From contig JBAZJG010000005.1 in assembly GCA_041651455.1 (NCBI GenBank), positions 3,882 through 67,881 on the forward strand: a DNA stretch of 64,000 nt, given 5' to 3'. Shown here in pieces: positions 34,455 through 60,630 of the stretch. How positions within the stretch are numbered: position 1 is the first letter of the stretch; every line of letters starts with the position of its first letter. The DNA is from Candidatus Omnitrophota bacterium (GTDB taxonomy: Bacteria > Omnitrophota > Gorgyraeia > Pluralincolimonadales > Pluralincolimonadaceae). The position numbers were made by a program, and so were the translations under genes. The notes below the pieces were generated by a model. It ran no database searches. It was not told the origin of the DNA and saw only the letters and a list, made by a program, of their open reading frames with translations.

Positions 34455-35668
34455 CGTTAGCCGCATTCGTCGCCGTTGCGGCGTTCCTGCCCGCGGAAGT
34501 CCTGGTCCGCGAAAGGGTCCTCAAGAAACCCGAGACGATCCAGAACATCGGCTTCACAAAAGGCACTACGGTGTATTTCGACGAATCCGGCAGGCTGCAA
34601 TTCGCGAGCCTCGGCGCCGACCAGCAGGTCGGGGGCATCAGGTTCGCTAAACGAACGTCCGTTTATTTCGACGGCTCCGGAAGGATCGATTATGTATACC
34701 TCGCCGCCGACCAGCAGGTGCTCGGGGTGGACGTAAGAAAGGGGACCTCGGTATATTTTACCAAGAACGGGAAGCTTGACTACATCATGGTCGCCGGTGA
34801 CGAAGAGATCGGCGGCCTTCTCTGTGCGAATGGCTCAAAGGCGGGTTTCTATGAGTCGGGAAAACTCCGGTATGCCACGCTCGGCAAGGACCAGCAGGTG
34901 CAGGGGATACCGTGCGCTAAGGGCTCAATAGCGGGTTTTTATGAATCGGGGAAACTGCGGCACGGGATATTATCAGATGACTCATGCGTGCAGGGCATAA
35001 TGTTCGCGAAAGGCACCTACCTTCTTTTTTATGAGACGGGCGGCATAAAGAGCGCATACCTCGTTGCGCCTACCGAAATAATGGGCATTACCTGCGCGAA
35101 CGGTCCGAGCGCGAGTTTTTATGAGAACGGTAAACTTGACTGGGCTGTCCTTGCGAACGTAAGCGAGGTCCAGGGGATATCATGCGCGAAGGGTTCGACG
35201 ATCGGGTTTTATAATACCGGAAAGCTCCAGTACGCTACGCTGTCTTACGAACAGGAAATCGACGGCATCGCATGCGCAAAAGGCGCGAAGGCCGGTTTTT
35301 ACCAGTCGGGTAAACTCCAGTTCACGACTCTTGCGGCAGACCAGCAGGTCTTCGGCATTCCTTGCGCAAAGGGCACGGTCGCCGGCCTGTATGAGAACGG
35401 CAAGCTGCAGTATGCGACCCTCAGCTCCGACAGGGAGATAAACAGCATACCCTGCGCGAAGGGAACGAAAGTTGATTTTTATGAGTCCGGAAGCCTGCAG
35501 AATGCTACGCTGTCCAAAGACCACAGGATAGGCAATATCGACTGTCCTAAAGGAGCAGTTGTCGGTATACGCGAATCCGGCACGCTTAAATACCTGATAT
35601 CCGAAGGGTCTAAGGCGAGTTTCGACGAGAACGGAAACCAGAGAGATATCGAAAAGACTGCAGATTGA
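34436..35668 (+). CDS. Secreted tandem-repeat protein, ~14 repeats of 23 aa (MORN_2/YwqK-like repeat). TTG start overlapping the GGDEF gene end.
   Basis: Signal peptide 'RRTIIALAAFVAVAAFLPAEV'. Periodic 'G..(V/A)(Y/G)F(Y/D)E(S/N)GKL(Q/R)YATL..DQQV.GI.CAKG' units. Confidence 0.7.
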   Translation: MRRTIIALAAFVAVAAFLPAEVLVRERVLKKPETIQNIGFTKGTTVYFDESGRLQFASLGADQQVGGIRFAKRTSVYFDGSGRIDYVYLAADQQVLGVDVRKGTSVYFTKNGKLDYIMVAGDEEIGGLLCANGSKAGFYESGKLRYATLGKDQQVQGIPCAKGSIAGFYESGKLRHGILSDDSCVQGIMFAKGTYLLFYETGGIKSAYLVAPTEIMGITCANGPSASFYENGKLDWAVLANVSEVQGISCAKGSTIGFYNTGKLQYATLSYEQEIDGIACAKGAKAGFYQSGKLQFTTLAADQQVFGIPCAKGTVAGLYENGKLQYATLSSDREINSIPCAKGTKVDFYESGSLQNATLSKDHRIGNIDCPKGAVVGIRESGTLKYLISEGSKASFDENGNQRDIEKTAD

Positions 35669-35705: not shown

Positions 35706-35734
35706 TTGACGACCTTCCGTACGCGTAATACAAT
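35706..35734 (+). promoter_or_regulatory. Sigma70-type promoter upstream of the HTH / TolC-like / giant gene operon.
   Basis: TTGACG (35706-35711), 17-nt spacer, TACAAT (35729-35734). RBS ggaggaaggag lies before ATG 35767. Confidence 0.45.
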
Positions 35735-35766: not shown

Positions 35767-35961
35767 ATGGACATAGGCGCGAAATACATAACTATGGAAG
35801 AGGTCGTGAATTACTTAAGCCTTAGCGAGGGCAGTATCCGTAAACTTATACGGGAACAGAGTTTCCCGCACGTAAAGGTGCTCAGGAAATATCTGTTCAA
35901 TAAGCAGGATGTCGACGCGTGGCTTAAGATGCATTCACAGGGCCTAAGGGCAAATAAGTAG
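35767..35961 (+). CDS. Small helix-turn-helix DNA-binding protein (excisionase/MerR-like HTH_17 type).
   Basis: 'ITMEEVVNYLSLSEGSIRKLIREQSFPHVKVLRKYLFNKQDVDAWL' is the typical excisionase-family HTH. Confidence 0.6.
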   Translation: MDIGAKYITMEEVVNYLSLSEGSIRKLIREQSFPHVKVLRKYLFNKQDVDAWLKMHSQGLRANK

Positions 35962-35985: not shown

Positions 35986-38900
35986 ATGCTAAGCCAAAAT
36001 TGTAAGAAATATATTATATCATTATCCATCGCGCTCGCGATGTCGTTTCCGTCGATGTCGTGCCCCGGGGAATTAGATTACAATAAGCTTTCGCTTGAAG
36101 CCGCGCTGAACAGGATGTATGAAGTAGACCCCGAAATACAGATAAGCAGACTCGCATGCGATGCGTCCCTCCTCGAGATAAAAGCAAGGAAACTCGATAC
36201 ATTCATGCCGAAGCTCAGCGTCGGCGTCAGTATAGTCAAGCCGGTCGATATCTTCACGAAACTTGACCAGCAAAAAGAGATGTTCTTTGAACAGCAGGTT
36301 ATCATAGAATTCGCCGTGACCTCAAACAGCTTCAACCATATCCTTAAGGACAGGAAAGGGTACGAAGCTAGCATGCTCGAATTGAAGCAGGCGGTTTCCG
36401 AAAGGAGCCGTGAGCTCATCACCGTATATTACGCCGTCGCAAGGGCCCAGGAGAATTACAGGTCCAGCTGCGATAACATCGAGACAGTCGAGAAGGTCCT
36501 GAAGATGGTCGAAAACAGCAATGAATATACGGACGTCGAAAAACTCGAGATAAGGAACTATCTTGCCGTGGTCACGGAAGAGAAGTTAGGCGCGCTGAAT
36601 ACGCTCATCAATACGAGAAGAGACCTCCGCGGGCTTCTCGGTCTGGAGAACAGGGAAGATATCGATATAACCGTCGAGGAACTGCCTGATAATATCAACA
36701 ATGACATCGCCTTCTATGAAAACCCGTTGATAAGGCCGGCGGATTACACCCTCGACATATATAAGAAAAGGGGTGAGGCTGCGGACGTGGCCTCCCGGAT
36801 CAGCGCGTCTCCCTTATTGAAATTTTCTTCCGCGACGATCCTCGGCATCGCCGAGGGCAGGTTCACGAAACTCCAGAAGAAAGTGATAACTGATACGGGA
36901 GTGGAGTTGCATATAACCGACTTTGGCTATACCGGAGGCCTCAATGATGTAAGCAAGATTAATTCGCAGATAGCGAGGTTGGAGGTATTGAAAGCAGAAG
37001 AGGACCTTGAGTATTCGGATTTAATAGCGAACGGCAAACTGGCCGAACTAAGCGGCCTAATAGATAATTACAGGGAATACATAACGAAGACGGAAGACAT
37101 GTTGAGGATGTTCAGGGAACGCCTCTCCTTGCCGGTCATCGAGATAATAAGGATGAACGATAATCTCTATAAGGCCAAGTATGCGATGCAACAGGCGCTC
37201 GTCGATTATACGGTCATGCTCTCGAACCTTAAAGGTGTCGAGCTGAAACCCGAACAGACCAGCCCTCAATACCAGGATATGAGCTTGGAAGACCTGCTTG
37301 CGAGGGGCGAGAGGAGTGACATCCTGACCGTCAAACAGATATCCGAGAAGAAGATGAGGATGGAAAACGTCAGGATCAACGCGACAAAGGCCGGATATTT
37401 CCCGAAGATCACCGGTGCGGCCATACTTGAGAACGCGAACATAGACGGCGTGCCGTCGCAGGCTACGAGGGCTTACGTTGCGCTTGAAGGGCAGCTCTTT
37501 AACTTCAAGAACGGGCAGGCCATCAGGGCAGCGAAGGCCAGCATGGAAGAAATCAGGTACGAGGGCGCCGCGCTGCAGAACGTGGTCGCGGATGAGATAA
37601 TAAAGAACTACCTGTTCATATTAAGGAGCAAGAATACCTTAAAATGGCTGAACGAGATCAAGGGGATAAAAGACGACATAATACGCGATATGCTGGAAAA
37701 TATGGAAGGCAAGGGCCCCAAATATAGTAATTCGGATATACTGCCGCTGGTCCTGCAGCAGATGGAGCTGGACAGGATGATGGCGGATGCCGAGTTCTCG
37801 CTGGCGGTCGTCGAGTATAGCCTCAAGAAATGGACCGGCATACCGCTCAACGAGACGATAAGCGTAAAGGAGCTCCCGGCGTTCGGGGAGGACGAAGGGC
37901 TCTCAGGGTTCATGGCGCTGATCCGGTCCAAGGTGGCGCCGTATTTCGACGGTAAGGCGCCGGTAAAACAAGCCCTGAGCGCCGTCGAAAAGAACAGGGC
38001 GGAAGAGGCGCGGGCCGTCGCGTATGATGGGGCGCTGCTCCAGGTAAAATGCGAGACGAAGGGCATGGAATATAAGGGATGGCATGATCCCGACAGGCAG
38101 GTGTCTTTCAGCGTCTCCGTGCCGTGGGGCGACCGCAGGGAAAAGATAGCCAGGTCTGAGGCGGCGAGGACCCGCATCAAGTCGGAGATCGAGTATTTGA
38201 AGAGCATGGATGCTTATGAAAAAGAGAGGTTATCCGTCAAGACCTCCTACGATTCATCGAAAGCGCTCCTTGAAGACCTGCGCAGCAAGAAGGAGAATAT
38301 GGAATCGCAGTACAGGATAACCGAGGAACTTTACCGGTTCGGCGGCCGGACAAAGAAGCAGATGGTTGATTCCAAGCTGGATTTCATAGTAGCGCAGATG
38401 AGCTATGAGGAAGCCGTCCTTGACAACTATTACCACAATGCGAGGGAGCTGCTGGTAGTGGAGAAAGATGCGGAACCCGAAGGCAGCGAAAGGATATTGC
38501 TGGCCGGATTGCAGGAAGCGATAGACCTTGCCATGCAGAACAGCCGCGAAATAAGGAAATACGAGGAGAGCCTCAAGCTCGAGAAGGAAACATTGGATTA
38601 TTACAAGACGGTGAGGATAAAGGGCGATATCGGAGGGGATTCCTATATAATAGATAACAAGGGCTGGAATGAGACAAAGAGGGTCAAGACCGCGGGGATC
38701 GTCGCGACCGCCGACATTGACCTCGTGAACAAATATATGGTGAAAGTCCAGCAGCGCAGGATCGAGCTTGCCGAAAAGGACCTCGAGCAGGCGAAGTTCG
38801 ACCTGACCCTGAAGGTCGCGGATGCCTACTCGGGCTACCTCGGTTCGCTCGCGGAGACCTCGGAAGTCCGCAAGGAATACGAGAGGCAGAAGACGGTCCT

Positions 38901-39795
38901 GGCGGAAATGGAAGAGCTTTTCAAGGCGAAAGCGATAGCGCATGTGGACCTGCTGAAGCAGAGGGAGTTCGTAGAGAGCCTTCTGCAGAAGTACATCGAC
39001 ACCAACAGGTATACCGAAGGGCACAGGAACAGCCTCGGCATTGCCGTCGGAGGCCTCGACCCGAGGTTTTCGGTCGTGAACACCGAGGTTTACGACAAGT
39101 CCGCCCGGCGCGTCGCGCTTACGGAAGATTTCGAGATCAAGCAGAGGCTGTTGGACGAGCTTACATCCGCGAGGCAGGCGCTCCAGGGACTGCTGCAGGA
39201 TGATCTGCTCAAGCGCGCGGAGATCAAACTCGACATGGCCAGGCTTGATACCCAAGCTATATCAAAACAGGTAAAGACGCTCGCGGTCAACCTCGAGTAC
39301 ATATACCTTACGGATTTCATGGGACTAATAATGAGGGATGAAGCCGCCTTCTCGCGTTATGACAACATGTCGGAGTTTTTCTCGCTGAACTCCATAGACC
39401 AGATATTCAATCCCGCCACCGGGACTAAGGCGAGGATTGCGGCGATAAGCGAGAAGGTCGCGGCATTAAGGTCGAAGTCATATACGAAAAACGTTGTCCA
39501 GGACGCGTTGAGGAGGTTTACCGATTACCAGGTGGCCGTGGCCGATTACGCCAACTACGAGAAGAACGAAACGGTGCTGGAAAACGAGATGGCCGAGAAG
39601 ATGCGTATGGAAGAGGCGGCAGGGAACACGGCCCTGATCAGGCAGAGGGAGCTAAAAGAGACGATACTTAACAACAAGATAAAGAAGATACAGGCATTCT
39701 ACAGGATGATGAAATTTATGAACGAACTGGACCGTTATCTGATAAGATATACTTCAAAAGGCATAGAATCATACGTAACATTCGTCACAAAATGA
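35986..39795 (+). CDS. Unusually long (1269 aa) TolC-like outer-membrane channel protein (OEP family repeats plus extensions).
   Basis: Signal peptide. 'LSLEAALNRMYEVDPEIQISRLA' is a TolC-type N-terminal motif. Recurrent OEP-type coiled-coil/beta segments ('AIRAAKASMEEIRYEGAALQNVVADEIIKNYLFIL', 'EELYRFGGRTKKQMVDSKLDFIVAQMSYEEAVLDNYY'). The stop overlaps the next start (ATGA). Confidence 0.55.
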   Translation: MLSQNCKKYIISLSIALAMSFPSMSCPGELDYNKLSLEAALNRMYEVDPEIQISRLACDASLLEIKARKLDTFMPKLSVGVSIVKPVDIFTKLDQQKEMFFEQQVIIEFAVTSNSFNHILKDRKGYEASMLELKQAVSERSRELITVYYAVARAQENYRSSCDNIETVEKVLKMVENSNEYTDVEKLEIRNYLAVVTEEKLGALNTLINTRRDLRGLLGLENREDIDITVEELPDNINNDIAFYENPLIRPADYTLDIYKKRGEAADVASRISASPLLKFSSATILGIAEGRFTKLQKKVITDTGVELHITDFGYTGGLNDVSKINSQIARLEVLKAEEDLEYSDLIANGKLAELSGLIDNYREYITKTEDMLRMFRERLSLPVIEIIRMNDNLYKAKYAMQQALVDYTVMLSNLKGVELKPEQTSPQYQDMSLEDLLARGERSDILTVKQISEKKMRMENVRINATKAGYFPKITGAAILENANIDGVPSQATRAYVALEGQLFNFKNGQAIRAAKASMEEIRYEGAALQNVVADEIIKNYLFILRSKNTLKWLNEIKGIKDDIIRDMLENMEGKGPKYSNSDILPLVLQQMELDRMMADAEFSLAVVEYSLKKWTGIPLNETISVKELPAFGEDEGLSGFMALIRSKVAPYFDGKAPVKQALSAVEKNRAEEARAVAYDGALLQVKCETKGMEYKGWHDPDRQVSFSVSVPWGDRREKIARSEAARTRIKSEIEYLKSMDAYEKERLSVKTSYDSSKALLEDLRSKKENMESQYRITEELYRFGGRTKKQMVDSKLDFIVAQMSYEEAVLDNYYHNARELLVVEKDAEPEGSERILLAGLQEAIDLAMQNSREIRKYEESLKLEKETLDYYKTVRIKGDIGGDSYIIDNKGWNETKRVKTAGIVATADIDLVNKYMVKVQQRRIELAEKDLEQAKFDLTLKVADAYSGYLGSLAETSEVRKEYERQKTVLAEMEELFKAKAIAHVDLLKQREFVESLLQKYIDTNRYTEGHRNSLGIAVGGLDPRFSVVNTEVYDKSARRVALTEDFEIKQRLLDELTSARQALQGLLQDDLLKRAEIKLDMARLDTQAISKQVKTLAVNLEYIYLTDFMGLIMRDEAAFSRYDNMSEFFSLNSIDQIFNPATGTKARIAAISEKVAALRSKSYTKNVVQDALRRFTDYQVAVADYANYEKNETVLENEMAEKMRMEEAAGNTALIRQRELKETILNNKIKKIQAFYRMMKFMNELDRYLIRYTSKGIESYVTFVTK

Positions 39796-42700
39796 GCGGG
39801 AATATGTCAAAGAGCGGCAAAAAAATAGCCATAGTGCTGGTAGCGGTCGCGGCCATCTTCATCACGGCGCGCTCGTGTATGCACCGTTCCGCGGATGTAC
39901 GGGACGCGGCCGGCACACAGCAACCGATCGCAGCCGGTGCCGCGCGTACAGATAACCCGCTCGACCATGCGCGGCAGCGCGATTCGGCTTTAAATGCCGG
40001 AGAATTGATATCCTTCATATTGGAATGGACCAACCCGGAGACCGGGCTGGTGCCTACAATCATATCAAAGAGCGGGCAAAAGAACCCTTTTGCCGACCTG
40101 TCTTATACGTACGCGCAGGCGGTTGCGCACCAGAACCTCATAATTGCGGGATCAAACGACAGGTCGCAGGCCGCCGCGGAGATATTCAGGCAGAGGGGAG
40201 AGACGAGGGATATACCTAACTGCTTCAACGTCCGGACCGGGTTTAGCGAGGACCCTTTGGTAACTGCCGGGCCAAACGCGTACTGGGGCATAAGTTTCAT
40301 AAGGGAATACAAGGCAACCGGCGACGAAAAGTGGCTTACGGCAGCAAAGAGGCGCGCAGATTTCCTGCTAAAACTGCAGACGGATGACGGCGGGATAAGA
40401 AAGAACCCCTTCCAGGGCAACGCGGAATATAAAGCCAAGTCGACAGAGGAGAACCTCGATTGCTATGCGCTGTTCGTGATGCTTTCCGATATCACAAAGG
40501 AGAATAAGTATGCGGTTGCCGCGTCCGATGTGCTCAAATGGCTTGCGGAAAGCGGTGTATATGACATAGAAGCGGGTTATTTTATCGCAGGCACATCGGA
40601 TGATCAGATGAACCCGTTGTATGCAACAGACGCGAACGCGCTCGCTATCATAATACTCGGCCCTGAGCTGCTCGATTCAGAAGGCAAGGTCCGGTTCGGC
40701 GGGGCCGGCACAAGCCGCAGGATCCTGGACAGCCTTGATGCGGCCAAGGTCAAAGTAGATTATCTCCATCCGTCCGGCGTCACGATAAAAGACCTAGAAG
40801 GATTCGATTTTACCGACAAATTCGGCAGGCCAGGCAGGAAACCAGTCCTGAGCCCCGAGTTCACTTCCCAGGCGGTGCTGGCATATCTGGTAATGGCAAG
40901 GCACGCGAAAGAGAAAGGAGATGCCGAGTATTCGGCCAAGCTGATCGAAGACGCGCGGCGTTATCTCGATAACCTAGGGAGGATGGCAGCGCGCACAGGG
41001 AAGTCGGCGTCACTGCCTTATGCCTCGGAGAAAGGGATTAGGCGTTATCCGTTCGACAACTGGCTGACGCCGCAGGGAGATGCGGATATATCGGCGACAT
41101 GGGCGTCATTCCCATTATCGGGATTCAATCCGTTCGCGCTTGAAGGGTTAGGGCTGCGTGATGCGCTGAAGGACTCCGCGGAATGGATGTCCGATACGGG
41201 TGAGGTCATAAAGCCCGAAAAAGCTTTCGTTATCCCCGAACCGGAGAAGATCATATCCGAAGCAGAGCTCATTGCCCAGCAGGAAGCGGCAAGGGAAGAG
41301 GCGATGAGGAAGCCGATCGTGTATTATAAGGTCCTTTACGACCAGGTCAATAAGGATGCGACTATTGCGAGAAGGAGAGTGATAGCCGTCCTGATGACAA
41401 GCTACAATTGCTGGTTCGACGGCGTGCTGGATACGGCGTCGCGGGACTATGACGTGATCGGCGTTGACGGGAATTATAAGGTTTTCTACAAAAGATTCCA
41501 GGACCTTCCGGAAGCGACAAGGAAAGCCGTGCAATCGGAATATGCCTATTTTGACGAGCCAACCGGCATAAAATGGAGGATGGCCCCGAAATACAATTTG
41601 TATCTAGACGGGCAGTATAAGCCGTATTATGCCTTCGAGATAGACGGCGATTACAACATAATCAGGCAGTTTGCGTCCGAGAGCGACATCCCTGAAGAGA
41701 ACAGGGCCGATCTCAAGAGCGCAAAAGCCCAATTCCAGTCCTCCCGCGGCCTTCCCGAGGGCCATCTTATAGCAAGGTATTTCACCGCGCTCGAAGTGGA
41801 CGACGAGATGAATATAACGAACTATTACGAAGCGATAGATGACCTTCCCGGCCTTGTCTCTAAAGTCCCGATAAGCGAGGATGAGTTCAGGAGGTATATA
41901 AAGGCGAAGGACTGGGAGAGGCTGGACCTGGTCTCTGCTGGCATCATACCTGATGAAAAAGGGATGCTTGCCGTACAGGAGAGAGGTATGTATTACGCAA
42001 GGGTCCTCGGCCTCGATGAGACGAGGAGGCTGCGTGTCGGTGGTGTCTCCGTAGCCAGCGGACGCGAGATAATCATGGGAACGAGGTTCAGTCTTACTAA
42101 CTGGCGCATAGGAGAGGCATCGAAAACTAACGCCGTCAAATACGAGATCGGGCTCATAAAAGGCATGGTCATAAAGCCGCGTGAACAGTTTACCGGAAGC
42201 GGCCCTTCACCGACGCAGCCGCTTTGGATATACCTCGGGGAAGATATGATCGCGTCCGAGACCGCGGAATTCAAGAGAAGGCTCATGAGCTTGTTGAAGC
42301 GCATCAAATCAGAGAAGGATGCGCAGACACGCCTCGAGCTCGTGGAACAATACGACCGGTTGGCCGGAGAGCTCGCCTGGTACGACGAGAACGGGTTCAT
42401 ACATGTTATCTATTATGGTGTAAAAGCTGCCGAAAAGAGGTTCGGGGATTTTGCGTCGGCAAAGGCAAGAGCGGAGAACAGCCTGAGGACCTACGAATCG
42501 ATCCTGGGTAAGGACCAACTCGGGCGGGACCTGCGCGATTCATACGGCCGCGTATGGCTAAAGGTCATAAACGAGGCGACCGGACGCATATTATACGTCG
42601 AGGTCTATGATATGGCGGGAAATCTCGAGACGATATATTCCGGGAAAATCGATATCGACCCGCTAACTAAGGAGGTCAGGTCCGAAATAAGGACCGATCT

Positions 42701-45700
42701 CGAGTACGACAAGGAGACCCTGCAGGTAGTCGGCAGCCACACATACCGCACGGACGAGAACGGGGATTGGGTGTCCGATATATCCGAGAGCATATTCAAA
42801 GGGTATACGCCCGACAAGAAGTATTTCGTTTCGGAGGTGCATATATTCGATAGGGACGAGGACGGCAGGATAATATTCGAGGACGGGAAAGCCAGGTATA
42901 CAAAGAAGATAGAATATTACACGCCTGAAGGCGATATATCGGCCCAGATGGTGAAGAATATAATTACTATAGTCAAGTACGGCGCCAACCATGAGGTCGT
43001 GAAAGAGGTATTTCTCGAGCGGCCCGGAAAGGTCCTGACAGGGGAGAACACGAACCTCGATAACCTGACGCAGGGCCTTGCGTGGGTCCGCAGGTACAAG
43101 ACGACAGGCAAGATCTTGACTTTCAAGGATTCGCTCGTGAAGTCCCTGACATCGCTGCCGGAAGAAGAAAGGGAAACGGCCGCGCTGCTGATATTGAACA
43201 GGCTCGGCGCGGAGAAGGTGGGCAGGATCAGCGATATCCTTATGCTGGAAGAGAACGAGGTCACGAACAACCTGACCGGCGACCCTGCCGCGGCCGGGGA
43301 GGCGCCCTATTTTGTGTTCTATGAACCGGGCGACAGTTTAGGCCGGCAAAGGCTCATAGTGCGCGGCGGTACGATGGAGGTCCCCGTTGACTGGATAGCC
43401 GAGGCCGATATACCTTCGAAGACGCTCACCTTCAACCTTGCCGGTGAATTGGTCTCGATAAGCGATGTCGACAGCTCTGTCCGCGCGGATTCCGTACTGC
43501 CTCCCGGATATATAGAAAGGATGGCGCCGCTCGGTATCAACGCCGATACGCTGCTGCCCCAGATGAAGAAGAGGATATTCAGGATGGTGACCGGCGAGGA
43601 CGGCCTGCCGCATTTCACGAATACGGTGGCCATAACGACGGTCAGCTACATGATACCCGACGACGTTCTCGGCAGGGAGCTCTTGAATGTCAAGTTTGTC
43701 ATGCTCGGGGACGAGACGACGCTCCACAGCGGCAGCGCGCTGAAGCTCAAGCGAAATATATTCGGCAGGGACACGCTTATCGAGTCGTGGAAGGACGAAA
43801 GGGGCGAGGCCCGCACCCGTGCTATAGCCAAGAAAGAGGATACCGTAGTATATGAATGGTATAAGGAAGGCCTCGGCACCGGCGAGCTGCGAGAGCGCCT
43901 GAAGTCCGAATGCGGCAAGATCGTGAAACGCAAGATACTGGAAGAGGCGCTTGAGAACGTCGCGGAGGCGCCGTTCGGCACAATGCCCGGCTATCACGTC
44001 ATAAAGCCGAACGGGCGTATAGGCGAGATCAAATATTTCTCCGGCACAGTCGAATATCCGCGCAGCGTCTTCAGTCATCCCGGGGTAAAGGTGCCTTATG
44101 AGACGGAAGCGCCGCCGTTCAAGCTTCCGGACGGTCCCCTGATAAGGGGAGTGAAATACGGCGTGTTGAATTCCGATTACGCGTTCTATGACGTGCATTC
44201 GCTCAGCGGCCAGCTGATAGTCCTCGAACGCCGTTTCATAATCCTGCGCCTCATGAACATACTGCCGGTGCAGGGCGGCAGGCAGACTGAATATTATGAC
44301 CCGCTCGTCCCGTATTCATACCTGAGGCCGATAAAGATAGAAAGGGATTTCAGGCCCGGCACACAACCCGAGGGCACGCAGCCGGGCACCCAGATCGTTG
44401 CGGTCTTTATCGGCGATGCGAGCATCTACCACCGTAACGGATGGCAGACCCAGACTTTCCTCGAGAGGAGGCCGTTCGATATAGAGCACTGGATACGCTC
44501 TGATTACGAGTTCGACGATAACGGCGTATATAAGTTCAAGAAAGAGCATATCGAAAGCAGTTCGATATACCTGATGAGGTCTATAAAATGGCAGAAGCCG
44601 CTAGCTTTCTTCGCGTTTGTGGCAGGCCTCTTCTTCCTGGCCGGGTATGTCTCGCGCAGCAGGCTTAAGGCAGGTAAGAGGTCCAGGATGGCTGTCGCGC
44701 GTGCGGCATCGCGGCCGTTCAGCAGGGAAGTGCTTGCGCGGCTCTCGGTACCTGAAGAGCTGAAAGCCGCCTGTATAAGGGTTTATGAAGGACATGAGCC
44801 GGTATCGGAACTCTTCGCCGCATCCGAAAAGGTCTTCAGGCCCAGGATCGAGGAATGCCTTCGCGGTTTCGGGGCCGACCCTGCCGGACATACGGCAAGC
44901 GTAAATGTCCTGCTGGACAGGATCGCGTGCCGGATCGGAAGGGAGGATATAAATTTAAGCAACCTGTTCGCAGTTGAAGCGAAAGAGTTCGGGGAATGGT
45001 CTAAGAAGAACGGGCATTCCGTCAACATTGCCGCAGGCAGGCCCGGCAGGGACGACCTGTCGGTGATAGTCCTCTTCAGGCTGGTATTCGACGAATCGAT
45101 GGAATTCAGGGCCGCCGTCACCGGGTTCAGGAATTACCTGCTCGATAAGTCGCTCGGGCTCCTTGACGAAGGCAGGAAAGGCGATATATTGCGCGAGATA
45201 CGCGGCGATACTCTCGCTTTCCTCGAGGCCTTAAGGCCTGGTTATGACAGGAAGCTCGGGCTCACTAAGGAATATATATTCACGTATGATGACATGAGCG
45301 AGCTCTTTGAAGGAAAGAGGCCAGGTTTCATCGCCTCATTCTCCCAGCTGGCAGGAAAGACCGCCGAGCAAAAACTCTCCTGGCTCGCGTCAAGGGCGGG
45401 CAAGGATGCCGCCGCGGACGTGAAGTCATACAAGAGCTACATATGGCTCAAGACGTTCCCTGATAAGGCCGGCGTTCCGCAGTTCGTCTGGAACCTTAGG
45501 CGCTTCTGGGAATTTCTCGTGCCGATGTTCGCGGCAGTGACTCTGGGCGGCGTAGCGATAGCCCTGAAACGGATACCGTTCGCCCAACGCCTCTCCGGTG
45601 CGATGGGCCCGATAGGAGCCACCTTTGTCGAGGTAACGGCCCTGATATTTATCGGCCTCATCATAACTATGGCCTTCAAGAGGCGGACACTCGGCGATTA

Positions 45701-48700
45701 CAGGCCCGCGCTGAGGGATGCGGCCGGGAGCAAGGAGCTCAGGCGCTCGATCAGGCTGTTCTGGATAATGTTCGGCTCGGCTTCTTATCTCTGGGGCCTC
45801 TTCAGCATATTCGTGATAATCTGGACCGTCAGGATCATAAGCAAACTCACGTTCGTGAGCGCCGGATGGGGCCTGTTCATCAACGTGAGCGCGCTGCTGC
45901 TCACCTTCACGTTCATACTGTCGAGCTTCTTCTCGCTCTTTTATATCATAATAGCGTTGATAGGGTTTTACCGCGGCAAGAGGGAAGGCATCGGCCAGGT
46001 CATATCATGGGCCCAGATGAGGAGGAAGTTCGAGGCATCCAGGCGGTGCTTCGGGCAGATCATCACTCCGTCCGAAGCGTTTTGGAAATCATATTGGAAT
46101 TCCATGATAACGGAACTCTACGATTATTATGTCATCAGTGCCGCGGAGAGGGATGGGCTGGTTTATTCGGAAAAGAACGCGGTGCCGAAGCTATCCTCAC
46201 AGCCGCGTGCCGAAGAGGCCTCCGAAAGGATGCGCCTGTACGTAAACAGCTGGCTTATGGAGATGCCGAAGGCATGCTCCTGGAACGACCTGCCGACCTT
46301 CACGGCAATGGTAACGGCTTTCAATGAGCCGGTAAGCTTCTCGTTCGACGAGCTGAACGGCTGCGACAGGGGGGCCGAGGTCACGAGGCTTAACCACCTG
46401 ATCGGGTTCTATAGGCCGCAGTGGGAAGAATTTGTCGGCAGGCTAAATTCCGCCGACCTCGGGCATTATATCACGAGGGAACAGCTAAAGCTGCTCTTCG
46501 GCCTGAAGAAGCTGCCCGAAGGGCTCCCTGAACAACTGAAGGAAAAGATCAGGAAGTGGGCAAACCTGACGGTCCAGTGCGTCGAGAAGACGGCCGTGGA
46601 GGTATACAGGATACGCGACGCTTTCGCGGCATACGCACGGGCCTGCTATCCCGGAATCTCCGAGAAGGCGGTATCGGAGATGGTCTCTGATAAGGTCCAG
46701 ATACTGCTGAATTACGAGGGCTACCACAGCGCCGCGACCCGCGATTCCGACAAGGAGGCCCTGAGGAGGATCATGAAGGAGCTCCCGTTCCTTGACGTAT
46801 ACTGGGCGGCGCCGGAAGGCGACGAGAAGGGAACGGACCGCGGGCTCCACCGCTATAACCCGTCGACAGACAGCATAGAGCTTATAGAGACCGCGCCGTT
46901 CACCTCCACGGTCAAGAAAGGCAAGCCGAGCGGGCTGAACCAGGCGCTGCCGTTCGTGAAGGGCGAGACGGTCCTTTTCTTCGACGCGAACTGCTCGGTC
47001 AGGATAGAGGACGCCCTGAAACTGCCCGTCGCGCTTTCCGAGTTCGCGGACGACCCGTCGCTCGGCGAAGTCCTGTTCGCGGAATACATATTCAACAAGA
47101 ACTACTCCTGGATCTCCCAGGCGATAGGTTTCAACGAGGAGACCTTCGTTTCGGTGACCCAGAGGACGCTTAACATCTTCCAGGCCTGCGGTTTCTACGG
47201 CCACAGCGCGATAATAAAGACAGACATGATAACCGCGGCCTGCGGCCTGCCGCAGGATTACATATCGGAGGACATACTCCTTGCCACGGCATTATGGAAA
47301 AAGGGCCTGAGGACCTCGCACAAAGAATACCTGACCTTCGGGAAGGGCAGGGAGACCTCGTATTTCACGAGCCTCGTGCCGCTGACGAAGTGGGCGATGG
47401 GTTCTTCCGACGCCGCGATAGGCCGCGTCATGCGCGGCATACTCGATTCGAGGAATGTCCATGTCGCGCAGAAGTTCATGCTGATGTTCGGGTTCTCGTT
47501 CTTCTACCAGACCCCGCTGATGTTCGTGATAAACTTCCTTTACCTGTGGCTGATGATCTGCTGGGGCATAAACGGTTTCATGGCGGTCCCGTACCCGATA
47601 GTCTTCGGTATCCTCGGCCTGCTCTTCAACCAGGCGATAACCGCTACCGGCGTCGCGTACCTCGTGGAACATTACGGTTTCAGGAAGTCCTTCTCCGCAT
47701 ACATGAAGCTTGTCGCGAAGAACCATTTCTTTTACGCGTCGGTCATACCCGCGTACGCGTTCGGTTTCCTCGCAGGCCTGAAGGGAAAGGCAGTCTTTAT
47801 CATAAGCCCGAAGGGATGGAACCTGGGCCACCTGCCCCTCAAGACGATATGGGGGGAGAAGAGGGCCATACTGAAGGCGGCGCTCTTCAGCACCATGGTA
47901 GGCCTTCCGCTCGCATACCTGTTCGTGTCGACCGAGACGGTCCCGTTATGGATAAGCCCGTTCATACCGTTCCTGCCGTTCGCCGTAGTTGCGGCTATGT
48001 ACTTGGCCGGCCTCAGGTGGAAAGAGACGGGATTGGGTTTCCTGAAGGATTGGCGCGACGAGATAGTCCCCGACGGCGACATCCGCAAGATGTCCGTCAT
48101 AAAGCTGCAGATGATATACGCGATGGTCTTGCTTGTCTTCACGGGAGTCGGCTTCGTCATGTGGGGCCTTATATTCTCATCCCTGGCGGTCAAGGCGCTG
48201 TTCATATTCTCGGTCCTTTACATAAGCACGACGCTGTCGTTCATAATAATGCCGCTCTTTGCGCATTCGCAGCCGGTCGCGCTGTTCAAGGAGATAACGA
48301 TATCCAAGTTCTGGAATTACGCGGTGATACCGATGCTGCTGGCGAGCATTGTTCTCGGCGCGGTCTCTATAATGTCGAGCCCCGCGACGGCATCGCCCGA
48401 ATCCGTCGTCTATACGCTTCTCGGCATATCGATGCTTGTCGGATGGGCGCTGCTTAAGTGGAAGCTCAGCGGGTATGCGAGGCTTGACAGGTGGCTCAGG
48501 CAGAACCTGGCCGGATACGCATCCTCTTCGCCGGTACGCAAAGCCGACCTCATGGATGACATATACTTCGCTCACCAGGAGTTGATCCAGAGCGACAGGC
48601 AGGAGGAGCTTAAATACAGCAGGAAGGCCGGGAAGGCCAAAGCCGTGTTCGTGTTCACGCTGTCGGCCGCGTTGCTGATGTATTTCACGTCGGAATTCTA

Positions 48701-49019
48701 CCCGAGGTTCTTCAGCAACTGGATATGGATCGTTATCGCGATCGAGGCGGTCTACCTGCTGATATTGAACGTCGAGCATACTAAGGGCGACAGGATATAC
48801 CTGGGCAAGTTATTCAGCGAAATAATGATTAATGATTTCAACAGGCTCAATGAGAATGTCAGGGCCATGGAAGACATCTGGAAGAAACTGGACAGGATAT
48901 ACAAGGCCAAGCTTATCAGGACCTATGAGGACGAAGTCAGGGCCAAGAGGGCGATGACCGTTTACATGTCCAGGTGCATAAGGTCGTGGGAGGCGGGACA
49001 GCAGCAGAAGCCTACTTAG
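39792..49019 (+). CDS. Giant (3075 aa) membrane protein fusing an exported region to an OpgH/MdoH-like GT2 glucan synthase. Order: N-terminal signal-anchor, exported region with an (alpha/alpha)6-like module, re-entrant transmembrane segment, cytoplasmic linker, transmembrane cluster, GT2 catalytic core, C-terminal multi-transmembrane bundle.
   Basis: N-terminus 'KKIAIVLVAVAAIFITA'. (alpha/alpha)6-like helical hairpins ('YWGISFIREYKATGDEKWLTAAKRRADFLLKLQTDDGG'). Transmembrane segment at aa ~1598 'PLAFFAFVAGLFFLAGYV'. GT2 motifs 'TAFNEP', 'GKPSGLNQAL', 'LFFDANCS', 'GHSAIIK', 'SEDILLATALWKKGLRT', 'TKWAMG'. About 8 C-terminal transmembrane helices. Confidence 0.7.
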   Translation: MSGNMSKSGKKIAIVLVAVAAIFITARSCMHRSADVRDAAGTQQPIAAGAARTDNPLDHARQRDSALNAGELISFILEWTNPETGLVPTIISKSGQKNPFADLSYTYAQAVAHQNLIIAGSNDRSQAAAEIFRQRGETRDIPNCFNVRTGFSEDPLVTAGPNAYWGISFIREYKATGDEKWLTAAKRRADFLLKLQTDDGGIRKNPFQGNAEYKAKSTEENLDCYALFVMLSDITKENKYAVAASDVLKWLAESGVYDIEAGYFIAGTSDDQMNPLYATDANALAIIILGPELLDSEGKVRFGGAGTSRRILDSLDAAKVKVDYLHPSGVTIKDLEGFDFTDKFGRPGRKPVLSPEFTSQAVLAYLVMARHAKEKGDAEYSAKLIEDARRYLDNLGRMAARTGKSASLPYASEKGIRRYPFDNWLTPQGDADISATWASFPLSGFNPFALEGLGLRDALKDSAEWMSDTGEVIKPEKAFVIPEPEKIISEAELIAQQEAAREEAMRKPIVYYKVLYDQVNKDATIARRRVIAVLMTSYNCWFDGVLDTASRDYDVIGVDGNYKVFYKRFQDLPEATRKAVQSEYAYFDEPTGIKWRMAPKYNLYLDGQYKPYYAFEIDGDYNIIRQFASESDIPEENRADLKSAKAQFQSSRGLPEGHLIARYFTALEVDDEMNITNYYEAIDDLPGLVSKVPISEDEFRRYIKAKDWERLDLVSAGIIPDEKGMLAVQERGMYYARVLGLDETRRLRVGGVSVASGREIIMGTRFSLTNWRIGEASKTNAVKYEIGLIKGMVIKPREQFTGSGPSPTQPLWIYLGEDMIASETAEFKRRLMSLLKRIKSEKDAQTRLELVEQYDRLAGELAWYDENGFIHVIYYGVKAAEKRFGDFASAKARAENSLRTYESILGKDQLGRDLRDSYGRVWLKVINEATGRILYVEVYDMAGNLETIYSGKIDIDPLTKEVRSEIRTDLEYDKETLQVVGSHTYRTDENGDWVSDISESIFKGYTPDKKYFVSEVHIFDRDEDGRIIFEDGKARYTKKIEYYTPEGDISAQMVKNIITIVKYGANHEVVKEVFLERPGKVLTGENTNLDNLTQGLAWVRRYKTTGKILTFKDSLVKSLTSLPEEERETAALLILNRLGAEKVGRISDILMLEENEVTNNLTGDPAAAGEAPYFVFYEPGDSLGRQRLIVRGGTMEVPVDWIAEADIPSKTLTFNLAGELVSISDVDSSVRADSVLPPGYIERMAPLGINADTLLPQMKKRIFRMVTGEDGLPHFTNTVAITTVSYMIPDDVLGRELLNVKFVMLGDETTLHSGSALKLKRNIFGRDTLIESWKDERGEARTRAIAKKEDTVVYEWYKEGLGTGELRERLKSECGKIVKRKILEEALENVAEAPFGTMPGYHVIKPNGRIGEIKYFSGTVEYPRSVFSHPGVKVPYETEAPPFKLPDGPLIRGVKYGVLNSDYAFYDVHSLSGQLIVLERRFIILRLMNILPVQGGRQTEYYDPLVPYSYLRPIKIERDFRPGTQPEGTQPGTQIVAVFIGDASIYHRNGWQTQTFLERRPFDIEHWIRSDYEFDDNGVYKFKKEHIESSSIYLMRSIKWQKPLAFFAFVAGLFFLAGYVSRSRLKAGKRSRMAVARAASRPFSREVLARLSVPEELKAACIRVYEGHEPVSELFAASEKVFRPRIEECLRGFGADPAGHTASVNVLLDRIACRIGREDINLSNLFAVEAKEFGEWSKKNGHSVNIAAGRPGRDDLSVIVLFRLVFDESMEFRAAVTGFRNYLLDKSLGLLDEGRKGDILREIRGDTLAFLEALRPGYDRKLGLTKEYIFTYDDMSELFEGKRPGFIASFSQLAGKTAEQKLSWLASRAGKDAAADVKSYKSYIWLKTFPDKAGVPQFVWNLRRFWEFLVPMFAAVTLGGVAIALKRIPFAQRLSGAMGPIGATFVEVTALIFIGLIITMAFKRRTLGDYRPALRDAAGSKELRRSIRLFWIMFGSASYLWGLFSIFVIIWTVRIISKLTFVSAGWGLFINVSALLLTFTFILSSFFSLFYIIIALIGFYRGKREGIGQVISWAQMRRKFEASRRCFGQIITPSEAFWKSYWNSMITELYDYYVISAAERDGLVYSEKNAVPKLSSQPRAEEASERMRLYVNSWLMEMPKACSWNDLPTFTAMVTAFNEPVSFSFDELNGCDRGAEVTRLNHLIGFYRPQWEEFVGRLNSADLGHYITREQLKLLFGLKKLPEGLPEQLKEKIRKWANLTVQCVEKTAVEVYRIRDAFAAYARACYPGISEKAVSEMVSDKVQILLNYEGYHSAATRDSDKEALRRIMKELPFLDVYWAAPEGDEKGTDRGLHRYNPSTDSIELIETAPFTSTVKKGKPSGLNQALPFVKGETVLFFDANCSVRIEDALKLPVALSEFADDPSLGEVLFAEYIFNKNYSWISQAIGFNEETFVSVTQRTLNIFQACGFYGHSAIIKTDMITAACGLPQDYISEDILLATALWKKGLRTSHKEYLTFGKGRETSYFTSLVPLTKWAMGSSDAAIGRVMRGILDSRNVHVAQKFMLMFGFSFFYQTPLMFVINFLYLWLMICWGINGFMAVPYPIVFGILGLLFNQAITATGVAYLVEHYGFRKSFSAYMKLVAKNHFFYASVIPAYAFGFLAGLKGKAVFIISPKGWNLGHLPLKTIWGEKRAILKAALFSTMVGLPLAYLFVSTETVPLWISPFIPFLPFAVVAAMYLAGLRWKETGLGFLKDWRDEIVPDGDIRKMSVIKLQMIYAMVLLVFTGVGFVMWGLIFSSLAVKALFIFSVLYISTTLSFIIMPLFAHSQPVALFKEITISKFWNYAVIPMLLASIVLGAVSIMSSPATASPESVVYTLLGISMLVGWALLKWKLSGYARLDRWLRQNLAGYASSSPVRKADLMDDIYFAHQELIQSDRQEELKYSRKAGKAKAVFVFTLSAALLMYFTSEFYPRFFSNWIWIVIAIEAVYLLILNVEHTKGDRIYLGKLFSEIMINDFNRLNENVRAMEDIWKKLDRIYKAKLIRTYEDEVRAKRAMTVYMSRCIRSWEAGQQQKPT

Positions 49020-50391
49020 TATTGTAGCTTTCTTTCAAAACCTCGTGGTAGTAGAGCCAATCGTCGCTAACCTTCTTCATCGCGCTGTAGAGGTTCCTGT
49101 AATCGTCGTAGATATCGCATTCGAACTCGATATTACGCCTTCCGCTCAGGAAATGCGCGAAGAGCTTGTAGTTCATCTCCTTGCGCAGGAAGTTCTTCTT
49201 CTTGAGGGCATAGAAGAGCGATCCGCTGCCTTCGAAGCAGTTCATTATCCTTACCCATTCGCAGGCGATGAATATGCAGTTCTTGTAGCTTCCGAACAGG
49301 TCGACCGTGTCGCAGTCGATGAATACGCATGATTCGAGCTTGCTCGACGGTTTTATCTTCTTGCTCCTGACGAAATAGTTGCCGTTCTCGTCCGGTTTGG
49401 ATATCTGCGCGGTCAGCTTGCGCAGCAATTCGAGATATGTCATTATGTTTGACGCCCAGTCGATCCAGTAGCCCCTGGCGATGGCGCCGCCGACGCTTAT
49501 CTCGTATTGCTGAAGGCATTCCCTCATTGCGAGCTGTATCTTCGATAGCGCCTTCTTCTCCAGGACGAGCGACTCGCAGACCAGCTTGTTGAAGCTCCAT
49601 TCGGTCGCGTTCAGGTGCGCGATGAAGTCCTTGTTCTTCTCCTTGGAGCAGAAGAGGTCGACCGCGTTCTGCAGCTTATCCAGGCTGTCTTTTGTGGTGA
49701 ATAGCTGGAACGTATTCGCGAGCGTCATACCCTTTGTATATTTAGGTATCAATTTTTCGTCGAAGGTCTTTTCGTAAAAAGAGGATATGCCGTTATTAGA
49801 GTCGAGCTTAGCCGTGCCGAGGCTCCCGAGGGCCCTGTTTATCTGTATCGGGGTCAGCAGCATGGAAGCCGTATGCGAGTTAAGCGATCTCAGCAGGCCG
49901 TTTATGTCCACATCGGCGTAATCGAAACACTGGTCGATCGGAAGTATGATAACCGTGTTCTTCAAAAGCGGGATGCTCTTGGCGATGCACGGAAGAAGCA
50001 TGTCCGGCGCCCGGCCTTCGGGGAACCTTATGCTCGCCTTTGACGGCGTGCCGAATTCATAAGAGAGGGGGAATATCCTCGTGGCGAGGCCGGCGTCATG
50101 GATATATACAATAGTATCGAAGGAATCAAGCTTCTTCTTGGAAAGGAGCCTCTTTATACGCTCGTGGGTCTTGAGGTAACCGGTAAGGTTACCGCGGGTC
50201 TGGCCCATCTCGGCCATCCCGACAAGCTCGACGTCTATCGTCTTGTTATACCGCTCCCTGAGCTTCTTCTTGAAGAGCTGTTTGAGGTCGAGAGAGAACT
50301 CAAGCTTATCATAAGAGTTCAGTACGAGCAGTACCCTGTCCGCGACCTCATTTTTTACTTTTAGGTTCTCCAGTACGGTAGTCTTAGCCAT
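49012..50391 (-). CDS. Hypothetical protein, convergent to and overlapping the giant gene end by 8 nt. The C-terminal region has hexapeptide-repeat-like (left-handed beta-helix) character. Possibly sugar-nucleotide related. Visibly lower GC than its neighbours.
   Basis: 'MAKTTVLENLKVKNEVADRVLLVLNSYDKLEF...'. C-terminal 'CVFIDCDTVDLFGSYKNCIFIACEWVRI'. K/N/F/Y-rich composition. Confidence 0.45.
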   Translation of the reverse strand: MAKTTVLENLKVKNEVADRVLLVLNSYDKLEFSLDLKQLFKKKLRERYNKTIDVELVGMAEMGQTRGNLTGYLKTHERIKRLLSKKKLDSFDTIVYIHDAGLATRIFPLSYEFGTPSKASIRFPEGRAPDMLLPCIAKSIPLLKNTVIILPIDQCFDYADVDINGLLRSLNSHTASMLLTPIQINRALGSLGTAKLDSNNGISSFYEKTFDEKLIPKYTKGMTLANTFQLFTTKDSLDKLQNAVDLFCSKEKNKDFIAHLNATEWSFNKLVCESLVLEKKALSKIQLAMRECLQQYEISVGGAIARGYWIDWASNIMTYLELLRKLTAQISKPDENGNYFVRSKKIKPSSKLESCVFIDCDTVDLFGSYKNCIFIACEWVRIMNCFEGSGSLFYALKKKNFLRKEMNYKLFAHFLSGRRNIEFECDIYDDYRNLYSAMKKVSDDWLYYHEVLKESYNTK

Positions 50392-59019: not shown

Positions 59020-59027
59020 AATTTTTC

Positions 59028-60267: not shown

Positions 60268-60281
60268 ATCACAGGATTTGG

Positions 60282-60606: not shown

Positions 60607-60630
60607 CAAAATAATTTTCAGGAGAAGGAA

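Follow-up and report, generated by a model that had tools for sequence, protein, structure and literature searches.

A giant Omnitrophota protein with a GT48-like glycosyltransferase core, a large exported module and a TolC-like neighbour

What is made by a bacterial protein of 3,075 amino acids (aa) encoded in one open reading frame (ORF), and where would its product be delivered? The protein in question is encoded in a 64,000-nucleotide stretch of a Candidatus Omnitrophota genome (NCBI GenBank assembly GCA_041651455.1, contig JBAZJG010000005.1, positions 3,882 to 67,881 of the forward strand), which we call the window and to which all coordinates refer. The gene and its catalytic domain are located as follows:

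39792..49019, + strand: giant ORF, 3,075 codons, uninterrupted (ORF list and translation)
45984..47471, + strand: cytoplasmic GT48-like GT-A catalytic domain, aa 2065-2560 (Pfam, profile, Foldseek, residue mapping)

An earlier note on this DNA had described one polypeptide joining a GT-A processive-synthase core, set in a bundle of transmembrane (TM) helices, to a very large exported N-terminal region, and had assigned the core to an OpgH/MdoH-like enzyme of glycosyltransferase (GT) family 2 (GT2). The architecture was broadly borne out and all the sequence features quoted there are present in the protein, but the family assignment was not: the catalytic core is very probably of GT48 type, i.e., of the kind found in Fks1 and the callose synthases. 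Products of GT48 enzymes include callose, the fungal wall glucan (the echinocandin target), laminarin and chrysolaminarin.

The Pfam model Glucan_synthase (PF02364) matched aa 2139-2587 with 86.1 bits against a cut-off of 37.2 (E 2.4e-24; profile positions 4-496 of 819), and the same family is assigned by precomputed annotation to 12 of 12 homologues of the giant protein (see below), while the model Glyco_trans_2_3 reached 26.7 bits, just under its cut-off of 27. A single-sequence search of the PDB gave yeast Fks1/Fks2 as best matches (E 5e-10), followed by BcsA (E 1.5e-5). When a profile of the 12 homologues was used, Fks1/Fks2 were found at E 7e-20 in one stretch covering Fks1 residues 693-1273, and BcsA at E 2e-4; residue 693, where the alignment starts, corresponds to the last TM helix ahead of the GT domain. 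No OpgH chain appeared at E <= 1 in PDB sequence searches with the GT region. The AlphaFold model of aa 1900-3075 had a mean predicted local distance difference test (pLDDT) value of 59.7, the values lying between 70 and 89 for most of the GT domain's first ~300 residues, and a Foldseek comparison of this model with the PDB returned Fks1/Fks2 as all of the top 13 matches (E 1e-14 to 1e-11), with BcsA at ~1e-3. The C-terminal ~1,450 aa are colinear with the Fks1 GT domain and show a comparable TM layout on both sides; in Fks1 this domain (~713-1281/1294) is cytosolic and inserted between TM6 and TM7 (PMC12715860).

Functional and active-site residues of Fks1, taken from PMC10499315 and PMC12715860, were mapped through an HMMER alignment, and 12 of the 16 mapped are identical: E851 corresponds to E2179, K1082 to K2378, D1102/N1104 to D2398/N2400, E1155 to E2431, E1173 to E2449, H1195 to H2471, E1221/D1222 to E2493/D2494, K1246/R1248 to K2518/R2520 and K1261 to K2533. 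These 12 residues are invariant among the 11 or 12 homologues covering each column: D2398-A2399-N2400 in all 12 sequences, and the catalytic ED motif with H2471, K2518, R2520 and K2533 in the 11 that cover those columns. In Fks1, a metal-independent D-A-N (D1102/N1104) stands in for the metal-binding DxD of GT-A enzymes (PMC10499315), and 'FFDANCS', formerly read as a DxD, is a D-A-N as in GT48. Likewise, 'TKWAMG' does not mark a QxxRW position, as had been proposed, and aligns instead to the interface-helix K1261 of Fks1; QxxRW is absent from the segment 'TKWAMGSSDAAIGR' aligned after GKGRE. Within the set of residues contacting uridine diphosphate (UDP)-glucose, E2179 and K2378 are kept and the positions of Y849, D1080 and N1085 differ (N1085 aligns with G2381, and N2383 lies two residues further on); because of these changes, donor specificity is not readable from the sequence.

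The reading frame itself is well supported by its homologues. Twelve full-length-type homologues, drawn from independent NCBI, JGI, ENA and Logan assemblies and 42-100% identical to the window protein, align with it end to end; 11 of them measure 3,035-3,136 aa and the remaining one is cut at 2,513 aa. The ORF is therefore neither a chance frame nor a fusion artefact, in agreement with the previous claim of a genuine single 9.2-kb ORF, and the search for similar giant fusions in Omnitrophota, which that claim had called for, yielded at least these 12. The GC content given with it, ~60%, was too high, since the computed value for the window is 0.50-0.59. The homologues are labelled Candidatus Omnitrophota, under the source names 'glycoside hydrolase family 76 protein' or 'glycosyltransferase family 2 protein', and a NCBIfam scan of the giant protein gave no match. 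A scan of GTDB with one genome per species (n=185,579) found 12 loci of the giant-protein family, labelled mostly Omnitrophota and otherwise Auribacterota, 'bacterium', Planctomycetia and Spirochaetes, the last two being labels of metagenome-assembled genomes that may be wrong. At its 5' end the ORF overlaps, in the sequence ATGA, the stop codon of a 1,269-codon ORF upstream. A second ATG lies four codons in (39804) and is used as the start by the NCBI copy P0001 (3,071 aa, 100% identical), which leaves the start of the giant protein uncertain by 4 aa.

Placement of the core relative to the membrane was derived from hydropathy, the positive-inside rule and AlphaFold helices. Together with the GT domain listed above, the layout is:

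aa 1-10, + strand: K-rich N-terminal cytoplasmic tail, with 3 K/R before TM1
39822..39872, + strand: TM1, signal anchor, aa 11-27 (hydropathy peak 2.35)
aa 28-1601, + strand: exported region, between TM1 and TM2
44595..44657, + strand: TM2, aa 1602-1622, back into the cytoplasm and followed by 'SRSRLKAGKRSRM' (hydropathy, positive-inside rule)
44658..45503, + strand: Arg-rich cytoplasmic linker domain, aa 1623-1904 (9.9% Arg, K/R-rich)
45504..45983, + strand: four long TM helices before the GT domain, aa 1905-2064 (AlphaFold, hydropathy)
47472..48791, + strand: C-terminal bundle of ~10-12 TM helices, aa 2561-3000 (hydropathy, AlphaFold with low pLDDT; column identity 0.75)
48792..49016, + strand: K/R-rich helical cytoplasmic tail, aa 3001-3075 (translation, AlphaFold)

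A signal anchor at the N-terminus, export of the next ~1,570 aa, re-entry into the membrane near aa 1598 and a cytoplasmic linker had all been predicted, and each has its counterpart in this layout. The predicted cluster of five TM helices exists, although AlphaFold resolves it into four long ones (1902-1924, 1931-1967, 1980-2018 and 2024-2064), and the C-terminal helices number ~10-12 by hydropathy and AlphaFold, not ~8. One hydrophobic stretch of 42 residues (aa 2020-2061) could form a hairpin, which would put the GT domain outside, but it is a single continuous helix in the AlphaFold model. Because an even number of helices separates the GT domain from the linker, the two are on the same, cytoplasmic side; the positive-inside rule, the AlphaFold helix count and the colinearity with Fks1 agree on this. 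The linker sits where Fks1 has its N-terminal accessory domain; aa 1623-1904 had no Pfam match and no homology to that domain was detected. The predicted order of linker, four TM helices, GT domain and ~10-12 TM helices, with TM counts from hydropathy and a low-confidence model, is that of Fks1, and the C-terminal bundle is the putative polymer-translocating channel.

The exported part (aa 28-1601) is made up of three regions:

39972..41201, + strand: GH76-like (alpha/alpha)6 domain, aa ~61-470 (Pfam, PDB matches)
41202..42491, + strand: mixed helix/strand region, aa 471-900 (pLDDT mostly 60-85; column identity 0.68)
42492..44591, + strand: beta-hairpin-rich region, aa 901-1600 (weak RHS/YD-shell and LolA fold resemblance)

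The first of these accords with the (alpha/alpha)6-like start that had been read into the exported part. Pfam GH76 (PF03663; glycoside hydrolase (GH) family 76) matched aa 162-271 with 38.3 bits (cut-off 25.9; profile positions 89-206 of 366), and in the PDB the GH76 alpha-1,6-mannanases (Aman6-type) matched the N-terminal exported region at E 2e-5. The catalytic residues of GH76 are an Asp-Asp pair, D124/D125 in BcGH76 (PMC12295086). Here D154 is invariant, position 153 varies among E, A, D and K, 'AGPNAYWG' follows, and the HMMER alignment begins just after the expected site of the pair; judged from its sequence, the domain may bind glycan rather than cleave it. Over the ~1,100 aa that follow, no Pfam match was obtained even at E <= 10. 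The AlphaFold model of aa 441-1600 shows the mixed region and then, from ~aa 920, long antiparallel beta-hairpins. Its top 17 Foldseek matches in the PDB were the YD-shells of teneurin, Rhs and TcB/TcC (E 3e-8 to 1e-3), with TM-scores <0.1. Membership of aa 901-1600 in the RHS family was considered and rejected, as no RHS_repeat was found at E <= 10 and hhalign against E. coli RhsA gave a probability of 0.1%; there are three YD-like motifs in aa 441-1600, two of them in aa 901-1600, where ~0.3 are expected by chance. Mean column identity in the beta-hairpin region is 0.74 versus 0.76 in the catalytic core, and since it is conserved as strongly as the core we regard it as a functional part and not a spacer.

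The GT48-like domain is not confined to the giant-protein family. When 1.84 billion cluster representatives were scanned exhaustively with HMMER, the query being aa 2100-2640, there were 507 matches at E <= 1e-3, 225 at <= 1e-10 and 51 at <= 1e-30, whereas a word-indexed search with the GT core alone returned 3, an effect of its prefilter. The source-named top matches are almost all from Omnitrophota and nearly all called 'hypothetical protein'; the others are from Auribacterota, one Patescibacteria-labelled genome and 'bacterium', and many matches end at contig ends. Among the 148 matches listed, 35 have at least 3,000 aa and 19 at least 5,000 aa, the longest having 7,886 aa; the source-named proteins reach 6,932 aa (Omnitrophota, hypothetical). 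Eukaryotic enzymes, among them a callose synthase of Thraustotheca, a glucan synthase of the Pavlovales and a protein of Cyanophora, appear in the same scan at E ~1e-19, and some Omnitrophota members are much nearer to eukaryotic GT48 than the window protein is, such as P0030, which scores 322 bits on the Pfam model and carries the motifs 'GKPEGQNN...IDINQD...NEDIFGG'. In a set of 83 bacterial-like and 21 eukaryote-like domains, conservation is 100% for K2378, D2398 and D2494 and 99% for E2493; all of the 83 bacterial-like ones (100%) have the first D of DAN, and its third position is occupied by N in 81% of them and by D in 18%. In a neighbour-joining tree of these 104 GT domains the sequences that are eukaryote-like by score cluster, with a few untagged ones interleaved, among deep bacterial-named clades. 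As this tree is crude, in effect unrooted and includes many sequences of uncertain origin, we draw no conclusion from it on direction.

The GT48-like domain is also found, in varying places along the chain, in several very long proteins of 5,000-7,886 aa (P0020, P0026-P0028, P0047, P0059, P0061, P0143 and others), and the source names in this set are Omnitrophota, with the descriptions hypothetical, LysM-domain or FAD-dependent oxidoreductase. The distribution of the module suggests that it is a recurrent building block of Omnitrophota giant proteins. GH72 is the family of the fungal Gas1-type beta-1,3-glucanosyltransferases. A GH72 match of 34.9 bits lies N-terminal to a Glucan_synthase match of 318 bits in the relative P0034 (2,315 aa; L019, 1442-8389; GCA_053991835.1), whose gene adjoins a canonical NTP_transferase gene.

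To our knowledge GT48 has been treated in the literature as eukaryotic, and we believe that CAZy holds few or no characterised bacterial members. Full-text literature searches turned up no paper that links Omnitrophota, or the giant genes of this phylum, to GT48 or glucan synthase, and the Omnitrophota giant-gene papers mention neither GT48 nor glucan synthase. A published GT48 phylogeny is midpoint-rooted and names only eukaryotic groups (PMC7965971), another study is limited to plant, algal and fungal members (PMC3797821), and a review of Fks sets Fks1 against GT2 enzymes only, with bacterial GT48 unmentioned (PMC12715860).

Where the product might go is suggested by the genes next to the giant ORF:

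32877..34454, + strand: dCache_1-HAMP-GGDEF membrane sensor diguanylate cyclase, 525 aa (GGDEF 1e-42, dCache_1 7e-17, HAMP 5e-10)
34436..35668, + strand: exported MORN_2-repeat protein, 410 aa, with signal peptide (Pfam MORN_2 35.4 bits, cut-off 29.6)
35706-35734, + strand: promoter-like site TTGACG-17-TACAAT (a match to the consensus only, at 10 of 12 positions)
35767..35961, + strand: 64-aa small ORF between the MORN and OEP genes, matching an HTH_17-annotated gene (ORF list)
35986..39795, + strand: triple-length TolC/OEP-like outer-membrane protein, 1,269 aa, with signal peptide (Pfam OEP E 9e-23)
49012..50391, - strand: convergent 459-aa protein, conserved at the locus (synteny, weak NTP_transferase signals)

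Each third of the 1,269-aa protein passes the OEP cut-off of 22 bits (48.4, 36.4 and 35.7 bits), a BLASTP self-comparison found no internal repeats in it, and its orthologue in locus L001 has five OEP stretches. To judge from its sequence, one chain probably makes up the whole of a pseudo-trimeric exit duct; we found no description of such a single-chain, triple-length TolC-like form in a limited literature search. Its gene lies directly upstream of the synthase in every locus with a flank, and since its stop codon overlaps the start codon of the giant ORF the two are probably translationally coupled. The 459-aa protein is 50-52% identical where the synthase is 43-45% identical, and is kept in three arrangements. 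Single-sequence Pfam and PDB searches with it gave no match, and its PDB profile searches were topped by spurious HIV gp41 matches, but NTP_transferase was weakly indicated for three members of its family, in two by E values of 1.4e-3 and 0.036 and in one by a precomputed PF00483 assignment. The protein contains a G-loop-like motif, 'HDAGLATRIFPLS', and a Cys-rich C-terminus resembling a left-handed beta-helix; we tentatively regard it as a divergent GlgC-like sugar-1-phosphate nucleotidyltransferase that would supply the donor. The sensor diguanylate cyclase is a candidate regulator of the system through cyclic di-GMP (c-di-GMP). Its gene overlaps by 19 nt that of the MORN protein, whose repeats are of the type 'CAKGS.AGFYESGKL.YATL', and the MORN gene always travels with the GGDEF gene. 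The 64-aa ORF is 75-95% identical in L003, L007, L008, L010, L012, L013 and L017, its L003 orthologue carries Pfam HTH_17, and it may encode a local regulator or mark the start of the OEP-synthase operon.

Beyond these genes, the surroundings are housekeeping in character (EF-G, RuvB, Tgt, SecDF, RecJ, RecG, PlsX, FabD, ETF, DnaG, RpoD and RNase P). The window also contains, among the housekeeping genes, a 1,038-aa ORF at 3437-6553 (+ strand) with no Pfam family at E <= 1e-5, and, at 58943-59104 and 60279-60612 (+ strand), tRNA-Met, tRNA-Val and a bacterial class A RNase P RNA (215 bits).

Comparison of 19 loci by tblastn with the window proteins showed the order OEP-like gene, N-terminal half and C-terminal half in every locus that has flanks. 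In the Omnitrophota loci the halves are fused, and in L005/L006, L015 and L018 they lie in different frames, i.e., they are split. The clearest split form is on a 1.99-Mb contig of an Auribacterota-related bacterium (L005/L006, 990-16323), where the system is encoded by separate adjacent genes:

OEP-like protein, 1,321 aa: 27% identical to the OEP-like protein of the window
N-terminal half, 1,661 aa: 43% identical, with a weak GH76 match, aligning from aa 10 of the giant protein to at least ~1475
GT48 half (P0018), 1,447 aa: 44% identical, equal to aa 1680-3055 of the giant protein
convergent 460-aa protein: 52% identical to the 459-aa protein of the window

The break between the two halves falls just after TM2, at the start of the cytoplasmic linker, and the two-gene form either arose when one gene split naturally or preserves an ancestral condition before fusion. 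Most of the 19 loci contain the 459-aa gene, in three different positions. The GGDEF and MORN pair is linked to the giant gene in three arrangements, being upstream in the window-type loci, including L003, and downstream in L001/L002 and in L014. In the distant Omnitrophota locus L001/L002, whose giant protein is ~43-45% identical to that of the window, the flanks (1-5504 and 22214-26686) also contain genes for a GT2 protein (Glyco_tranf_2_3), a second OEP protein of ordinary length (393 aa), a phosphoglucomutase (PGM_PMM) and a 444-aa PilZ protein, which could be further parts of the pathway in that lineage.

Taken together, these results lead us to propose, as a probable though by no means secure reading, that the giant protein is the inner-membrane engine of a GT48-type, synthase-dependent system secreting a polysaccharide (glucan) across the envelope. 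That the product is a beta-1,3-glucan we put forward more tentatively, at a little short of an even chance; the product, the export route and the control by c-di-GMP are all inferred. The GT domain would polymerise a nucleotide-sugar, most likely UDP-glucose, into a beta-1,3-glucan-like chain, with the donor possibly supplied by the nucleotidyltransferase-like 459-aa protein, and the chain would be threaded through the TM channel of the synthase itself, as in Fks1 and BcsA. The periplasmic module would receive and guide the chain, possibly trimming or transglycosylating it, in a role analogous to that of BcsB plus BcsZ, or of the remodelers Dfg5 and Gas1 that accompany fungal Fks, and would pass it to the TolC-like single chain, through which it would leave at the cell surface. 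An environmental signal might tune the output through c-di-GMP made by the dCache sensor. In favour of the c-di-GMP link we count that the GGDEF-MORN pair stays together despite rearrangement, and in favour of the pattern of a remodeler fused to a synthase, the GH72-GT48 fusion in P0034.

A number of observations weigh against this proposal. Donor sugar and linkage are extrapolated from the activity of the eukaryotic GT48 members (UDP-glucose:1,3-beta-D-glucan glucosyltransferase), and 4 of the 16 mapped Fks1 residues are substituted (Y849 by F2177, D1080 by K2376, K1172 by N and N1220 by S). The models are mediocre: Foldseek TM-scores to Fks1/Fks2 are 0.29-0.38 at 13-15% identity, and the model of aa 441-1600 has a mean pLDDT of 65.0 and a predicted template-modelling score (pTM) of 0.52. 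A conserved GH76 DD pair is not evident across the family near the expected position, and if the GH76-like domain hints at any chemistry, it is that of alpha-mannan. Ducts of the TolC type normally dock onto adaptors in the periplasm; none is present at the locus, and we know of no precedent for polysaccharide export through a TolC-like duct. Neither PilZ nor another recognised c-di-GMP receptor was found in the giant protein or the window neighbours scanned, and no GGDEF gene lies within 10 kb of the Auribacterota-like locus. Finally, the nucleotidyltransferase assignment of the 459-aa protein is below significance; the match of its family profile to E. coli GlgC, although colinear, has an E of 0.036.

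Other explanations of the locus have to be weighed against secretion by a GT48-type system. According to the earlier note, the core would be an OpgH/MdoH-like GT2 synthase making periplasmic (osmoregulated or cyclic) glucans that the fused part processes, with no export across the outer membrane. A GT-A domain with flanking TM bundles is common to OpgH, BcsA and Fks1, a periplasmic destination of the polymer is compatible with the sequence, and the Glyco_trans_2_3 score is only 0.3 bits under its cut-off. The resemblance between 'GHSAIIK' and the OpgH motif 'GHNAIIR', which had been put forward as support, is real ('FYGHSAIIKTD / YWGHNAIIRV', i.e., YGHSAII versus WGHNAII), but it is the sole match of E. 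coli OpgH in BLASTP, covering 19 aa with 21.6 bits and E 0.12, and hhalign of the family profile with OpgH gave a probability of 0.2%. The Fks1 profile match, with no OpgH chain beside it, the D-A-N in place of DxD and the missing QxxRW, together with a dedicated TolC-like gene upstream that argues for export past the periplasm, make this explanation very improbable. A role in attachment to, or attack on, a host or prey, in which the exported GH76-like and RHS-like part would act on surface glycans of foreign cells or deliver cargo and the GT module would mainly anchor it or modify prey sugars, is also improbable, though less so. Predation has been proposed as the purpose of Omnitrophota giant proteins that carry GH and GT domains (bioRxiv 10.1101/2023.11.21.568195, PMC10066038), the GT48-like domain occurs in many giant hypothetical proteins of the sizes given above, and the aa 901-1600 region resembles the cargo-encapsulating shells of RHS proteins and teneurins. 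However, the exported part is held between two inner-membrane TM helices and could reach other cells only after cleavage, the full set of catalytic residues of a processive synthase is invariant, the gene lies among housekeeping genes (EF-G, RuvB, SecDF, DnaG, RpoD), and the RHS resemblance fails at the sequence level.

The remaining alternative keeps the same machinery but has it make a structural polymer of the envelope (a wall, sheath or coat), or a product other than beta-1,3-glucan, such as a mannan or a mixed polymer. We consider it unlikely, if clearly less so than the other two. It would fit the housekeeping genomic context and the very high conservation of the system; GH76 enzymes act on alpha-1,6-mannan or, in the case of Dfg5, cross-link wall components to beta-glucan (PMC12295086), and members of the bacterial family differ at D-x-N and at some of the residues that contact the donor. 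By contrast, a linked sensor diguanylate cyclase is typical of conditionally made exopolysaccharides, the ~12 carriers among 185,579 species representatives are too few for a wall polymer essential throughout the phylum, and the GH72 fusion of P0034 points to beta-1,3-glucan. A broader reading, which extends the proposed secretion system and which we hold to be doubtful, is that Omnitrophota and their relatives contain a large prokaryotic radiation of GT48 coupled to GH72/GH76 remodelers, of which the eukaryotic Fks and callose synthases would be an offshoot or an ancient exchange partner, along with a new secretion machine consisting of a beta-hairpin cage and a TolC-like duct.

The new elements at this locus are the bacterial GT48 branch, the periplasmic module of 1,570 aa fused to it and a TolC-like partner in a single chain, and together they point to bacterial machinery, so far undescribed, by which a polymer resembling glucan would be made and exported. 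If true, a bacterial GT48 branch would serve as an outgroup for the beta-1,3-glucan wall machinery of eukaryotes and make a scenario for its origin testable, and its compact members, such as the stand-alone form of 1,447 aa, would open a family of antifungal drug targets to structural and mechanistic work in a prokaryotic version. It would also give a function to a recurrent domain of Omnitrophota giant proteins now annotated as 'hypothetical', 'GH76 protein' or 'GT2 protein'. The operon suggests a new solution to the export of polysaccharides across two membranes, in which synthase and periplasmic partner are one protein and the duct is one TolC-like chain; the synthase-dependent systems known to us (cellulose, alginate, Pel and poly-N-acetylglucosamine) work otherwise.

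Among known systems, OpgH and Cgs are likewise large inner-membrane glucan synthases whose products enter the periplasm, and Cgs is a ~2,900-aa multidomain fusion of synthesis and processing. OpgH has no significant sequence or profile similarity to the giant protein, the Pfam scan of which showed no GT84 or GH94 signal, and the processing domains of Cgs are cytoplasmic whereas the extra module is periplasmic here. The permutation of Cgs put forward in the earlier note is not needed to account for the giant protein, given that its C-terminal ~1,450 aa run colinear with the GT domain of Fks1. The BcsA-BcsB-BcsZ-BcsC system (GT2) shares more of the logic: an inner-membrane processive GT-A synthase-translocase, a large TM-anchored periplasmic partner, a periplasmic (alpha/alpha)6 component (BcsZ is a GH8 enzyme), a dedicated exit through the outer membrane, and c-di-GMP control, which we infer for the locus studied here. 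BcsA is also the second-best structural and sequence relative of the GT core, by single sequence as by profile. The engine of the giant protein is, in contrast, GT48-like, with DAN for DxD and without QxxRW or PilZ; its periplasmic partner is unrelated to BcsB and fused to the synthase; and in the outer membrane a triple-length TolC/OEP protein takes the place of BcsC, which combines TPR with a 16-strand barrel.

Canonical TolC assembles from three identical protomers of ~450-490 aa. Each third of the 1,269-aa protein matches the same OEP family, but the three protomer-lengths are in one chain, and the protein is paired with a glycan synthase instead of an ABC, RND or MFS pump and its adaptor. 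The pairing of GT48 with an extracytoplasmic GH is known from the fungal Fks/Bgs synthases, which act with Gas1 (GH72), Dfg5/Dcw1 (GH76) and Ghs2 (GH16) (PMC12295086, PMC13612389), and it recurs here in the GH76-like domain of the giant protein and the GH72-like domain of P0034; the coupling is covalent or operonic in this diderm bacterium, and no conserved DD pair is evident in the GH76-like domain. The closest relatives remain Fks1/Fks2 and the callose synthases (GT48), which are the best matches in both sequence and fold. They have the same GT-A domain between TM bundles, with a helix number similar to that predicted here, a cytoplasmic region (the accessory domain in Fks1) before the TM helices, the same E851-type UDP contact, K1082, D-A-N, ED, K1246/R1248 and the interface-helix K1261. 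The giant protein differs from Fks1 in its bacterial host, hence the lack of a Rho1 GTPase, in the addition of a TM-anchored periplasmic module of ~1,600 aa, either fused or separately encoded, and in a gene that forms an operon with a TolC-like gene and is linked to c-di-GMP signalling.

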